Shown: positions 5,759 to 36,310 of the stretch, in pieces
Numbering within the stretch: position 1 is the first letter of the stretch
Layout of the letters: every line of letters starts with the position of its first letter
From: Nitrospinota bacterium
GTDB taxonomy: Bacteria; UBA8248
DNA length: 36,310 nucleotides
Reading direction: 5' to 3'
Assembly: GCA_046581755.1 (NCBI GenBank)
Contig: JAYGFR010000250.1
Location: 1-36,310 of the forward strand
Program-made: the position numbers and the translations under genes
The notes under the pieces: model-generated
Told to the model about the DNA's origin: nothing
Seen by the model: only the letters and a program-made list of their open reading frames with translations
The model's database searches: none

Positions 5759-8023
5759 ATGTATCCCACGAGCCTGGATTACGAGGAAATCACCGCACGC
5801 CGGCGAAAGAATATTCGAAGGGCGACTCTCGGCCTGATCGGCATTACGGTCCTTTTGTTGACCGCCTGGATTTATTTCAAGGAACTGGAGCCGGGAACGC
5901 CGCTACTGAACAATGTGGTGGTGTTCGCTCTCGTCAATCTCAACATCATCCTTTTGATGGTCTTGGGCCTGCTGATCGTTCGAAACCTCGTTCGTCTTTA
6001 TCAATCCTCGCAAAAGGGACCGGGCGGCCTTCGGCTTCAGGTGAAGCTCATTGGTGCGTTCGTCGGTTTCACCTTGGTGCCCTCGGTGGCCTTGTTCCTG
6101 ATCGCGAGCGGCCTCATTAATCAAAGCTTCAACACGATCTTCAACATGGAAGTCGAAGGCGCCCTCAAAGGCTCGGTCCTGGTGGTCGAAACCTATTACC
6201 GCGAGACCGAGCGGGACGCGCTGGCCAGTGCGAAGAGTTTGGCCAAGGATATCGAGGAAAGAGGGTGGAGCGGCCTCAAGAATGCCCGCCTTTTGAAGGC
6301 CCATATCAAGGCCGTCAGGGGAAATTACCGAGCGGACGCGATTCAGCTGTTCAACGCCGATCGCAAAAGTCTGGCCTACGACATTCGGGAAAACATCCCC
6401 TCGGCGATGGTTTTTTCCCCCAATCAGGCCTACGTCGAGAAGGTACTGCAGGGGGAGATCCGATCAAGCGTGGAAAGTTGGGGCGATGGCGATGCCATTC
6501 ACGGCGTTGTGCCCATCAAGTCGCGCTCCAAGGTGACGGGTTTCGTCGTGGTTTCCCGGTATATTCCAGAGCGGCTCGCCGCGAAGATGAAGGACATGAT
6601 CATTGCCTACAAGGACTACAAGGAAATCGAACTGTCGAAAAATCCAATCAAGGCGAGCTATATCATTACATTTCTCCTCATCACGCTCCTGATCCTGTTT
6701 GCGGCCACTTGGTTCGGCTTCTACATCGCCCGCGGCATCACGGTGGCGATAGAAAAACTGGCCGAGGCCACCCGCTCCGTCGCCGAAGGCGACCTGGACC
6801 AACGGGTGGATGTCCAGGCCGACGGCGAAGTGGGAATCCTGGTCGATTCGTTCAACATCATGACGCAGGAACTGATGGCCAATAAAAGGAAAATCGAAGA
6901 CGCGACCTTGGACCTCCAGCGATCGAGCGCCGAAATAGACCAAAGACGCCGCTACATGGAGGCCATGCTCGAACATATCGGTACCGGCGTGGTGTCCATC
7001 AACCGCAGGGGAAGGGTTACCATCCTGAATAACGCCGCCGGCGAACTTCTCCGCATTGAGCCGGAATGGGCCCTCGGCAAGCCGTTCAACCAGGTATTCA
7101 AGGCCCAGCACCTCGAGCCCATCCGGCGGTTTCTGCGGACGATGCGCGAGGAGGGCCGCAAGAGCGTTTCCGAACAGGTCGATGTCCTGATCGACGGTCA
7201 GCTCCTGGCCCTGCGGGCGAGCCTCACATTGCTCCGGGACGCGGACGAGAGGCATCTCGGCGCGGTGGTCGTTTTCGACGATCTGTCGGCCCTCATTCGC
7301 GCCCAAAAAGTGGCGGCATGGCGGGAGGTGGCCCAGGGCATCGCCCACGAAATCAAGAACCCGCTCACGCCCATTCAGCTTTCCACCGAAAGAATGCGCC
7401 GAAAGTTCGAGCAAAAGGCGGTGGATTTTCCCGAGGTATTCGAAATTGCCACCGACACCATTATCCATCAAGTGCAGGGGCTCATGGAATTGGTGAACGA
7501 ATTCAGCCGCTTCGCCCGGATGCCCGAACCGCGCCTTCGGCCCTGCCTGATTGCCTCGCTCATCGATCAGGTGGTCGATCTTTACAGGAGCCGCCGGGGG
7601 GATTTGTCGCTCGGCCAGGAAATCCGCGGCAAGCTGCCTTCTATCATGGCCGATCCCGATCAAATTCAACGCGTCTTGATCAACCTGCTGGAAAATGCAT
7701 TTGATTCCATGGATGCCGAGGGAGAGGTCAAGGTTCACGCCCATTTGAACACCGAACGGAATCAGGTGGTCATCGAGATTTCCGACGAGGGGAAGGGAAT
7801 CCCCGTGGAGAACAAGGAGCATATTTTCTCCCCTTATTTCTCCACCAAATTCCAGGGCTCGGGTCTTGGCCTTGCTATCTGCCACCGGATTGTGGACGAT
7901 CACAACGGTACCATCACTGTGCGGGATAACCGGCCGCAGGGTTCTATATTCCGAATCGATCTCCCCGTCGCATCATCAGCGCCCATACCCGCAGAAATCG
8001 AGAGGACGGCAGCGATTGGATAA
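5759..8023 (+). CDS. ntrY: NtrY-like membrane sensor histidine kinase (TM-periplasmic-HAMP-PAS-HisKA-HATPase)
   Basis: Several TM helices, HAMP (EGDLDQRV..DEVGILVDSFN), PAS, H-box AHEIKNPLTPIQL, N-box NLLENA, DEGKGI, GSGLGLAI. Confidence 0.88.
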   Translation: MYPTSLDYEEITARRRKNIRRATLGLIGITVLLLTAWIYFKELEPGTPLLNNVVVFALVNLNIILLMVLGLLIVRNLVRLYQSSQKGPGGLRLQVKLIGAFVGFTLVPSVALFLIASGLINQSFNTIFNMEVEGALKGSVLVVETYYRETERDALASAKSLAKDIEERGWSGLKNARLLKAHIKAVRGNYRADAIQLFNADRKSLAYDIRENIPSAMVFSPNQAYVEKVLQGEIRSSVESWGDGDAIHGVVPIKSRSKVTGFVVVSRYIPERLAAKMKDMIIAYKDYKEIELSKNPIKASYIITFLLITLLILFAATWFGFYIARGITVAIEKLAEATRSVAEGDLDQRVDVQADGEVGILVDSFNIMTQELMANKRKIEDATLDLQRSSAEIDQRRRYMEAMLEHIGTGVVSINRRGRVTILNNAAGELLRIEPEWALGKPFNQVFKAQHLEPIRRFLRTMREEGRKSVSEQVDVLIDGQLLALRASLTLLRDADERHLGAVVVFDDLSALIRAQKVAAWREVAQGIAHEIKNPLTPIQLSTERMRRKFEQKAVDFPEVFEIATDTIIHQVQGLMELVNEFSRFARMPEPRLRPCLIASLIDQVVDLYRSRRGDLSLGQEIRGKLPSIMADPDQIQRVLINLLENAFDSMDAEGEVKVHAHLNTERNQVVIEISDEGKGIPVENKEHIFSPYFSTKFQGSGLGLAICHRIVDDHNGTITVRDNRPQGSIFRIDLPVASSAPIPAEIERTAAIG

Positions 8024-9359
8024 GGGGCAAATTCTTATTGTCGACGACGAAGAAAGCATAATCTCCAGTCTCGAGGGCATCCTTGAAGATGAGGGCTACC
8101 GCACGCTCAAGGCCACATCTGGGGAGACGGCCCTGGACCTGGTTCGCTCGGAATCTCCCGATGTCGTGTTGGTGGATGTCTGGATGCCCGGAATCGACGG
8201 AATCAAGACGCTTCAGGCAGTTAAAAACATGCATCCGGAAACCGAAGTGGTCGTCATGTCCGGGCACGGGACCATCGAGACGGCGGTCGCTGCGACAAAA
8301 ATGGGAGCTTTCGATTTCATCGAAAAACCTCTTTCCATGGAGTCCGTTCTCCGCGTCATCGGGTTGGCGGTGCGCAATAGAAGGCTCAAGGATTCCGGTG
8401 CGGCCTCTGGAAAAAAACCGCGCCGCGCAAAACGGAAGCCTCGCGTTGTCAATCATCGCGAAAGCGCCTGGAATGTCCCCGGTCAGGAGGCTGTCTCATC
8501 CGTGGGTTCGGCCAATTCTTTCTCTTTCGAGCGGCCCCAGAGAACGATCGACAAGAGCGTGGTCCTCTATGGCCGTGGGCTTCACTCGGGCCTGAAAACG
8601 GGTTTAATTCTCGAGCCTCTTCCCCCTGGCAGCGGGATTCGCTTCGGGAGCCTGACCACGAACGAAACCGTGGGGGCCCGGGCGGAGTTCGTCGATAATA
8701 CCAATCACGCCACCAATCTCAGGGATGGCGAAATCGTTGCCCGGACAATTGAGCACTTGATGAGCGTCCTCCATGCCTACGGAGTTTCCAATCTTCTGGT
8801 AAAGCTGAGCGAAGAGGTGCCGAACATGGACGGATCGTCGCTGGAGTTTTGCCGCTTGATCGAGGACGCCGGCCTTGTCGATCAGCCGGACGAACTGCCT
8901 TCCATCGTTATCGAGGACGTACTCGAATATGGCGATCCCGGATCGCCGGATGGATATATCCGGGTGGAACCGGGCGAGGGTTTCTCCGTCTCCTACGACC
9001 TGGACCTGCCCAGGCCCATCGGCAAGCAATCATTCGAGTACCGCCACGATAGCGTCGAATCCTTTCAACGGGAAGTCGCTCCCGCACGGACATTTAGTTT
9101 TAGCTGGGAGCTCGAAGCGCTGGAGGAGATGGGCCTGGGGGAGGGCGGCCGCTGGGGCAATGTCATCCTTGTCGATAAGGAGCGAGTGGTAAACACCGAA
9201 CTTCGCTTCGAGGACGAGTTTGTGCGCCATAAAATTCTCGACATTTTCGGCGATATATATTTGTTGGGCCGCCCGGTGGAAGGAAAAATTATCGCCTCGC
9301 GTTCGGGCCACCGCCACAATGTCGGCCTGGTTCGGCTCATCGGCAAAGCCCTCCTTTAA
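8016..9359 (+). CDS. lpxC: Fusion protein: response-regulator receiver domain plus UDP-3-O-acyl-N-acetylglucosamine deacetylase (LpxC)
   Basis: TTG start overlaps the kinase stop, with GAGAGGA upstream. REC motifs: ILIVDDE, D54 in LVDVWMPG, MSGHG, FIEKP. LpxC motifs: QRTI, GLHSG, TIEHLMS, MDGSS, ARTF, HKILD, SGH. Confidence 0.93.
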   Translation: MDKGQILIVDDEESIISSLEGILEDEGYRTLKATSGETALDLVRSESPDVVLVDVWMPGIDGIKTLQAVKNMHPETEVVVMSGHGTIETAVAATKMGAFDFIEKPLSMESVLRVIGLAVRNRRLKDSGAASGKKPRRAKRKPRVVNHRESAWNVPGQEAVSSVGSANSFSFERPQRTIDKSVVLYGRGLHSGLKTGLILEPLPPGSGIRFGSLTTNETVGARAEFVDNTNHATNLRDGEIVARTIEHLMSVLHAYGVSNLLVKLSEEVPNMDGSSLEFCRLIEDAGLVDQPDELPSIVIEDVLEYGDPGSPDGYIRVEPGEGFSVSYDLDLPRPIGKQSFEYRHDSVESFQREVAPARTFSFSWELEALEEMGLGEGGRWGNVILVDKERVVNTELRFEDEFVRHKILDIFGDIYLLGRPVEGKIIASRSGHRHNVGLVRLIGKALL

Positions 9360-35182: not shown

Positions 35183-35962
35183 TCAAACCCCTTTCGGCGC
35201 GGCCTCTCCATCCACGAAAATATCCTCCACGCGATCGGGATAGAAGGCCAAAAGCCCCTTGATTTTAGAACACTCCGGGAGCGGGTCGGGATAGCTCCAC
35301 ACCACGTCCTCGAATGTTTCACCGTTCACTTTGGCGGACCAATAGATGGCTTTCCCCTTGTAGGGGCAGCCCGAGGTCCTCTCTGACCGCACCAGCAAGT
35401 CCATTCGGACATCTTCTTCGGGAAGGTAGTATCGGGCCGGGAGTCCCGTCTCGAACAAAAGATGGGGGCTCCGGCTCTCGGCGATGGTTTCTCCACCGAG
35501 GAGAACGCGGATGTGGCGACTGCTTCCCAGCGCATCCACGCGCTTATAGGGATCGCGCGCGTGGACGAATATCTCATCCTCCTCTTCGTGCCAGGAATCC
35601 ATCTTGCCCCAATAAAAAGCGATATATCCGGCGATTTCAGGGACGCTCTCGATGGGGTCCTCATAGCTCCAAACCGCGTTTTCCGCCGTCCGGTCCCGGA
35701 CGGTCAGCGTCCAATAGGACGCCTCTCCCTTGACGGGTCAATGGGTGAGGTTGTCGGTCCGCTCCATGAGGTCCATCCGGACGTCCTCGGGAGGGAAATA
35801 GTATACGGGCCGGTGCCATGCCTCGCGCATCAAAAGGGCGCGCTTGCTGTCTGCGACGGTTTCTCCGTTAAAGGCCACCCGCACCCTCCTGGGGGATATT
35901 TCGTTATTCACCCAATGGTCCCCATCGCCCCCGTCACTCGGATTTGCTTTGGATGCCATCAT
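35183..35962 (-). CDS. Tandem DUF427-domain protein, 259 aa, with an in-frame TGA at codon 75 (probable selenocysteine; otherwise a nonsense-split gene)
   Basis: GGGAGG RBS before ATG 35962. Two repeats of the RV..GET.A.S / YY.P.EDVRMDL / CP.KG.A.YW / WSY.DP pattern. The first repeat reads TH*PVKGEASYW and the frame stays open to the stop at 35183. Confidence 0.85.
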
Positions 35963-36310
35963 CCAATTCCTCCCTATTCGGTAAAATTCCAAAATCCCGC
36001 CGCGAGGCGGGTCCGACAATTGCCCGGTTCCCGGCGATTCCATCCAAACGGATTCAGGACACTTTAATTCCATTCCAGGTATGATGAAAGTGTCTAGTCC
36101 CTCAAGGCAGAATTCCTCGAACCGGCCAGAGAGAGGGCTGGCGGGGCAGGGGAGTTCCCGGAATACCCTAAAATGGAACGGCTTGGCGGGATGGTGAGAA
36201 AATGCAATGAATATCAAATATTTATCATGCAAAAACCTGACGTTGCGCTTTAAATTTACCCTCTCAAATGATTCATTTTGATTGACAAATCAGGTGTTGA
36301 AATGGCACAT

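Follow-up and report, generated by a model that had tools for sequence, protein, structure and literature searches.

The window, the whole 36,310-nucleotide stretch of DNA that was analysed, carries near one end a DUF427 gene interrupted by an in-frame stop codon. On the minus strand, the frame running from 35962 to 35183 comprises 259 residues, ends at a true TGA stop and contains a single internal TGA at codon 75 (35740-35738), which is followed by 45 open codons up to Met121 (35602), where the downstream ORF fragment begins. This translation agreed with the preliminary description, which had placed two fragments in one frame, separated by this TGA and the 45 open codons. The read-through protein matched the PF04248 profile in two stretches (237.8 bits, E 6.7e-72 in a profile search), and translation, profile match and predicted structure together mark 35183-35962 (minus strand) as a probable tandem DUF427 selenoprotein gene. 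Its start, ATG ATG, lies 5 nt downstream of a Shine-Dalgarno-like sequence, AGGGAGGA (35968-35975, minus strand), read from the sequence as a putative ribosome-binding motif. Homolog comparison delimited domain 1 (35609-35884, minus strand), which holds the putative Sec site and the invariant residues E47, Y54, Y55, K78, G79, W98 and Y100, and domain 2 (35234-35512, minus strand), which holds Cys199 in CPYKG and Cys231, the latter found in 103/120 listed homologs.

The internal TGA (35738-35740, minus strand) falls in the domain 1 motif T-H-U-P-x-K-G, where U is the predicted Sec75. Repeat 1 reads RTDNLTH*PVKGEASYW and repeat 2 reads RSERTSGCPYKGKAIYW, so that the stop in T-H-*-P-V-K-G aligns with the Cys of S-G-C-P-Y-K-G, exactly as had been claimed for the internal paralog, and 118/120 listed full-length database homologs have Cys at this site. 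In the window the gene and der/engA converge, so that no operon is shared on that side; in close relatives it is flanked by der and a translation GTPase. A promoter and terminator scan at the gene gave no signal above shuffles, and no second DUF427 gene was found in the source genome (labelled G000; 96.5% complete, 400 contigs). Elsewhere in the window, downstream of a histidine kinase, 7866-9359 (plus strand) is a single ORF that by eye joins a response-regulator receiver to an LpxC-like deacetylase.

Among 36 further genomes of the family, 14 were found to hold a DUF427 gene, which makes 15 carriers with the source genome. Each of the 14 shows TGA at codon 75 without any further stop, across seven genera and at 58-76% identity. 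One of them (G019) has a single-domain DUF427 gene with the TGA, and another (G014) has lost 1 nt after the TGA, a frameshift that is compensated about 50 nt further on; a second, partial DUF427 copy in G001 begins past codon 75 and is uninformative for the TGA. Contigs from two other studies (sequencing runs X3 and X5) cover codon 75 and keep the TGA unchanged despite 7 and 13 differences elsewhere, while an RNA run (X15) yielded two short contigs that both lie outside the TGA. The strain differences, 9 silent and 4 amino-acid changing, carry no weight at such small numbers. In the 80 top-scoring GTDB loci, Cys fills site 1 in 72 (72/77 of the non-TGA loci), five have some other residue there and three have TGA, and Cys fills site 2 in 80/80; the three TGA loci, one of them labelled Nitrospinota, belong to family genomes included above and did not enter the totals again.

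The preliminary description had named TGC or TGT in relatives, or a TGA unique to one assembly, as findings that would speak against selenocysteine. Neither was observed: no same-family carrier has TGC or TGT, the contigs of the two other studies keep TGA, and the same-column TGA that it had proposed seeking in independent genomes occurs in 14/14 relatives, in 11 Dehalococcoidia genomes and in 78/107 metagenome matches. At the level of sequence comparison, the codon-75 TGA is confirmed as real, being neither an error nor a pseudogene. That it reflects a nonsense mutation, a pseudogene or an assembly error is barely conceivable, even with an assembly in 400 contigs, TGA as the commonest stop (778/1742 long ORFs) and one locally frameshifted relative, given TGA without any other stop in 15/15 family genomes at 58-76% identity, in two other studies and in unrelated lineages, and the conservation of sequence on both sides of it.

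It is also most improbable that this is a conserved split gene, in which UGA is a true stop and re-initiation at Met121 produces a separate one-domain protein. The in-frame ATG at 35602 is preceded by a weak GGGG, and single-domain DUF427 proteins are common (for example, 3DJM), but a stop at codon 75 would split domain 1 mid-fold in the predicted structure, and the 45 codons left untranslated would hold the best-conserved stretch. Moreover, Met121 is replaced in 6/15 genes, by Ala in two of them, and in single-domain TGA genes only half of the domain would be made.

The source genome encodes the four genes for which the preliminary description had suggested a search: selA, selB, selD and tRNA-Sec (selC) all scored above curated cut-offs, and selD itself carries one in-frame TGA. 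Among the family carriers, selA was found in 14/15 and tRNA-Sec in 12/15, the genomes without a match being only 67-90% complete; since selA occurs in 34/36 family genomes, its presence is necessary but does not discriminate. Screening the source genome for motifs of catalogued selenoproteins revealed at least 25 additional in-frame TGA codons, which, by this motif screen only, we take to be 4 OsmC-like, 3 deiodinase-like, 10 CMD/AhpD-like and 7 thioredoxin/peroxiredoxin-like sites together with selD; no match to the FdhA-type U-H-x-P motif passed the screen. Example sites are C208:22273 (minus), C290:22289 (plus), C110:4598 (minus) and C99:18313 (plus). The source organism is predicted to be selenoprotein-rich.

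Three further loci of the source genome were noted in passing. On contig C136 (2003-6397, plus strand), a gene resembling by eye an alpha/beta hydrolase lies between selA and selB. At C43:8257 (minus strand), an in-frame TGA in LIEILGP*PIEEMP has high coding potential on either side and a context that looks glyoxalase/VOC-like by eye; a simple screen detected no G-loop hairpin there, and the locus may hold a further Sec site missing from the lists, or two adjoining genes. At C86:30464 (minus strand), a TGA lies within NAGDG*HEHPTQALLD, presumably an aspartate carbamoyltransferase motif, and this stop in a probably essential gene is perhaps an assembly error.

An altered code or a suppressor tRNA that decodes UGA as Cys, Trp or Gly rather than Sec would also give a full-length protein. 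Cys does occupy the homologous position, UCA tRNAs inserting Cys exist, and the hairpin spacing described below is atypical. However, TGA terminates 778/1742 long ORFs in the source genome, as it does the DUF427 gene itself, and tRNA-Sec is the sole UCA tRNA among 45, and therefore UGA is not reassigned. Features of UGA-reassigned genomes (tables 4 and 25; a UCA-reading Trp or Gly tRNA) were not found in this genome, and canonical G-U apical loops at +19/20 accompany the UGA in other DUF427 lineages. Decoding as another amino acid thus has very little probability left.

The nucleotide sequence following the TGA is more constrained at silent sites than the same stretch of the Cys homologs. In a silent-site comparison of 14 TGA genes (G014 was omitted for its frameshift) with 72 Cys homologs, silent-site identity in the TGA genes was maximal at codons 74-91 (0.74 versus 0.55 for the median window). 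Codons 76-95 were the most conserved stretch of the TGA genes, both in amino acids (0.82 versus 0.67 overall) and at silent sites (0.70 versus 0.56), whereas in the 72 Cys homologs the silent identity of the same codons was 0.50 versus 0.56 overall. Two hairpins, H1 and H2, lie in this region, and the whole 66-nt stretch that contains them gave a z of -2.88. Folding energy was -7.5 or lower in 15/15 family genes, a non-specific property in that 58% of the 72 Cys homologs also reached it over the same span.

The hairpin nearer the TGA, H1 (35706-35723, minus strand), was characterized by pairing and folding comparison: 98.9% of cells are paired, and the mean energy given for it is -11.3 kcal/mol in TGA genes versus -4.2 in the 72 Cys homologs. 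It is conserved, but its loop (TATT/TACT) lacks the G called for by the bSECIS loop rule and it shows no two-sided change; it was rejected as first choice for the SECIS, and may have a helper role. The second hairpin, H2 (35686-35703, minus strand), has a 7-bp stem and a GGAC loop 41 nt past the UGA, and both covariation and loop position mark it as the candidate. Two of its pairs show two-sided changes in 7 cells, a score reached by 0/500 shuffles, which is to be read with the caveat that kin sequences are not independent and related sequences can beat such shuffles; its apical loop lies at +41 in 13/15 family genes.

H2 agrees with the consensus bSECIS model (PMC13188914, Fig. 2A) in loop, stem and energy. 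For most elements that consensus places the apical loop 16-37 nt from the UGA, with a subset departing from the model, as stated in the available portion of the same paper; H2, at 41 nt, falls beyond this range and is therefore filed as an atypical candidate, a non-canonical SECIS. The hairpin of the source genome's selD, by comparison, is 17 nt from its UGA.

Chance has to be considered, as such loops are frequent by chance in GC-rich DNA: G-loop hairpins occur within 45 nt in 38/72 Cys homologs and within 37 nt in 24/72. The weight appears to come from the constant position of the loop inside each UGA lineage, not from the presence of a loop.

That constancy could be followed outside the family. 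A degenerate TGA pattern matched 107 metagenome loci. Of these, 78 are DUF427 genes in tandem, single-domain and second-domain UGA forms, with 66 different sequences surrounding the codon; the other 29, with domain 1 scores below 80, were discarded as unrelated. The one TGA-pattern match among viral contigs was not a DUF427 gene. Apical loops containing G occur at +19/20 in three DUF427 groups (23/23, 6/6 and 3/3 members), at +33 in 8/9 and at +36 in 2/3 members of other groups, so that the 16-37 nt spacing holds in these lineages; among ungrouped loci, a G-loop lies somewhere within 45 nt in 7/11. In the group of L224-L230 and its metagenome members, the Ser after K-G-x-A is replaced by Gln or Arg, and the Gln/Arg codons make up the G-U-A apical loop found at +19/20; in this lineage the amino-acid change was apparently driven by the SECIS. 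In Dehalococcoidia, the TGA form was detected by pattern in 7/401 genomes, and a protein search of 100 genomes added four single-domain carriers that the pattern had missed. All 11 carriers have selA versus 62/101 at baseline, the carriers being kin.

A quick tree of 173 domains over 96 columns had seven Sec-label changes; branches with strong support make at least two of them unavoidable, UGA being found in both N-type and C-type domains. The Cys-to-Sec conversion of DUF427 is accordingly placed by this tree at a minimum of two origins, and further origins are likely because SECIS positions differ between lineages. In the model we propose, the Cys of C-P-x-K-G would have been converted to Sec more than once in selenium-rich marine lineages, with read-through guided by a hairpin in the coding region, most likely H2 in the present gene.

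The reading of UGA75 as selenocysteine thus withstood each of the comparisons that the preliminary description had named, with relatives, with other sequencing runs and with the sel genes. We estimate at about 0.95 the probability that UGA75 is translated as selenocysteine by SelB and tRNA-Sec to give the full-length two-domain protein. Only slightly less secure is the explanation as a whole, in which Sec75 is read through and Cys was repeatedly replaced by Sec.

The preliminary description had further proposed a two-site Sec/Cys protein. A predicted Sec site and a Cys site are indeed both present here, but the two are unlikely to be needed as a cooperating centre, given that relatives retain just one of them. 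Site 2 is non-Cys in 12/14 distinct metagenome sequences and 6/7 genomes of the Dehalococcoidia-type Sec lineage, and actinobacterial-looking loci have a domain 1 without the motif and the UGA in domain 2. In a sister family (f4: L099, L105, L107 and L108), the tandem DUF427 proteins have His at site 1 in 4/4. These four genomes were also observed to have selA and tRNA-Sec despite the His.

The AlphaFold2 model of the read-through form had a mean pLDDT of 90.1. Its best structural match was 3DJM (Z 19.1, rmsd 1.3 over 113 residues; Foldseek E 9e-11), which was also the sole match of the read-through protein among PDB sequences (E 5.6e-18). The best matches outside DUF427 were Mis18 (Z 9.0 and 8.3), YPEL5 (6.7), CULT (6.0-6.2) and MsrB (5.0-6.0), those with Z below 8 possibly mirroring only a shared arrangement. 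DUF427 has been placed in the beta-tent fold, without the zinc site, and the binding cradle of that fold lies between the strand 4-5 loop and an inserted hairpin, across strands 5-7, according to the accessible text of PMC4287342. Judged by strand order in the model, the U-P-x-K-G turn and the E47 hairpin would form the sides of this cradle and W98-x-Y100 its floor.

In the proposed mechanism, each DUF427 domain would be a zinc-free beta-tent whose cradle is lined by the invariant E47, Y54, W98 and Y100; the turn at the cradle rim would carry the Cys/Sec together with the invariant Lys78. As a lone reactive thiolate or selenolate, the Cys/Sec would attack a small oxidised compound of sulfur or selenium and would then be re-reduced by an external thiol or a thioredoxin-type partner, and each of the two domains would act on its own, with no Sec-Cys pairing. 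A single independent nucleophile in each domain is favoured because domain 1 has no second Cys, only the single Cys/Sec at the motif, and because relatives lose either site. We lean toward this function, a beta-tent domain with a single, externally re-reduced thiolate or selenolate per domain, as the somewhat more probable one. Among named substrates, oxidised ergothioneine- or selenoneine-type compounds are the leading candidate, which is itself a long shot.

Two literature leads contributed little. Little weight was given to the 71-fold SigH dependence of Rv0140 (PMC4803200), a presumed DUF427 protein. An association of DUF427 with deoxyhypusine monooxygenase (PMC5307852) is a low-scoring automatic one and was dropped.

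The main rival for the role of the residue accepts selenocysteine but has it coordinate a metal or an Fe-S cluster, or serve a structural role without catalysis. The His that takes its place in 4/4 sister-family genes, the frequent His74 and His50 nearby, and the occurrence of Sec as a metal ligand in several catalogued selenoproteins (PMC13188914) all point in this direction. On the other hand, there is one Cys/Sec per domain, the beta-tent zinc site is missing from DUF427 as far as the available part of PMC4287342 describes it, and Ser, Asp, Ala and Asn also occur as substitutes, in apparently degenerate domains. A ligand or structural role seems to us unlikely.

A still less likely proposal, and a doubtful one, again takes Sec as real and makes the protein a dedicated selenoneine/ergothioneine partner that recycles the oxidised form or handles a selenium or sulfur intermediate. 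In the accessible part of PMC13674229, 5.7% of NHISS (egtB/senA) genes have DUF427 within 5 kb, and the source genome has an egtB/senA-like gene (below cut-off) directly upstream of senB on contig C118 (3633-5863, minus strand), a probable selenoneine cluster by sequence. The distribution of the genes is also suggestive: across the 37 genomes examined in the class, tandem DUF427 and senB co-occur in 16, DUF427 stands alone in 3 and senB in 1, and 17 lack both, and in Dehalococcoidia senB is present in 5/7 tandem-Sec carriers versus 0/100 sampled genomes, none of which has a tandem match. Yet the cluster is unlinked to the DUF427 gene in the source genome, and no sen or egt gene is among the recurrent annotated neighbour families. 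Furthermore, senB occurs in just 22/50 genomes with non-TGA tandem homologs (50 of 77 loci, after near-duplicate clades were thinned and with G483, which is marked unpublished, included) and is missing in the four single-domain Sec carriers of Dehalococcoidia. Kinship, genome reduction or a selenium-rich lifestyle could give the same profile, which has no control gene. The association of DUF427 with senB is partial and possibly lifestyle-driven.

Neighbourhood comparison gave no partner of DUF427 across lineages, either in Pfam and NCBIfam scans of 94 and 35 neighbour frames or in the clustering of 3346 frames from 185 loci. Two neighbourhoods were noted as observations. The egtB/senA-like gene and senB on contig C118 adjoin an apparent betaine-type ABC transporter. 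At L124:126-3251, a ferredoxin-thioredoxin-reductase-like/rubredoxin gene and an OsmF-type betaine ABC transporter flank a short DUF427 gene of the UGA type with a single domain.

Comparison with published catalogues suggested that DUF427 has gone unlisted as a selenoprotein family. Neither DUF427, PF04248 nor U-P-x-K-G has an entry in the 119-family Table 1 of a 2026 catalogue (PMC13188914), and there were no DUF427 matches in four deep-Sep supplements. DUF427 is likewise absent from the accessible portions of PMC12013277, PMC9312934, bioRxiv 2022.07.06.499078 and PMC13326102, the comparison with the last covering material other than BSepDB Table S2, and NCBIfam has 0 models for DUF427. Full-text searches of openly accessible papers found none joining DUF427 to selenocysteine; 'DUF427' matches in PMC5897793 include DUF4277 and have no selenoprotein link. 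An Actinomarina preprint, as far as it was accessible, lists 69 mostly unnamed families. DUF427 is most likely a selenoprotein family new to the catalogues searched, while the recoding mechanism itself is textbook.

The family would add to the bacterial selenoproteome in lineages among the most selenoprotein-rich, UBA8248 'Nitrospinota' and Dehalococcoidia being among the ten most selenoprotein-rich genomes of BSepDB in the available text of PMC13326102. Every UGA member is truncated by annotation pipelines. The closest relatives, at 68-76% identity at the DNA-locus level, are missing from the 120 listed full-length proteins, which reach 65%, as expected if gene callers cut at the UGA. The SECIS hairpins of DUF427, at about +20, +33, +36 and +41, also form a naturally graded set with which to test the spacing tolerance of SelB. 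Speculatively, and with the same low confidence as the dedicated-partner proposal, DUF427 could be a second beta-tent redox-enzyme family with a reactive site unlike that of MsrB, the missing recycler or handler of oxidised selenoneine or ergothioneine, upgraded repeatedly to Sec, each time with a new SECIS at a different coding position and here beyond the accepted spacing.

The present gene shares with catalogued bacterial selenoproteins an in-frame UGA at a conserved Cys, the Sec machinery and a downstream hairpin with G in the apical loop, and differs from them in the 41-nt loop spacing, theirs usually being 16-37 nt in the accessible part of PMC13188914. No sequence similarity to MsrB was found, since Pfam gave PF04248 only and the PDB sequences 3DJM only. 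Mammalian MsrB1 is itself a selenoprotein. MsrB shares with DUF427 the beta-tent fold (Z 5.0-6.0, rmsd 3.8-4.5) and, under the mechanism proposed here, would share a reactive Cys/Sec at a small-molecule cradle, but has a zinc site and its catalytic Cys on strand 7 (PMC4287342, available in part), whereas the DUF427 residue would, by strand order, lie on the strand 4-5 turn of a domain with no zinc site. The W98-x-Y100 of DUF427 recalls W99/Y101 of CULT and W82/Y84 of yippee (same source, same portion); CULT/cereblon and yippee/Mis18 are, unlike DUF427, zinc-bound non-catalytic binding modules.

The closest known system is Cys-type DUF427 itself (PF04248; 3DJM from Rhodobacter sphaeroides), the same domain by HMM, sequence and fold, with the same C-P-x-K-G. 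Tandem Cys-type proteins are abundant (5061 matches among 8000 scored candidates), and the present gene differs from them in its predicted Sec in domain 1 and in the RNA-level constraint past the codon. The repeated replacement of Cys by Sec singles out one residue as the probable reactive centre of a widespread domain of solved structure, and its function is therefore directly testable.
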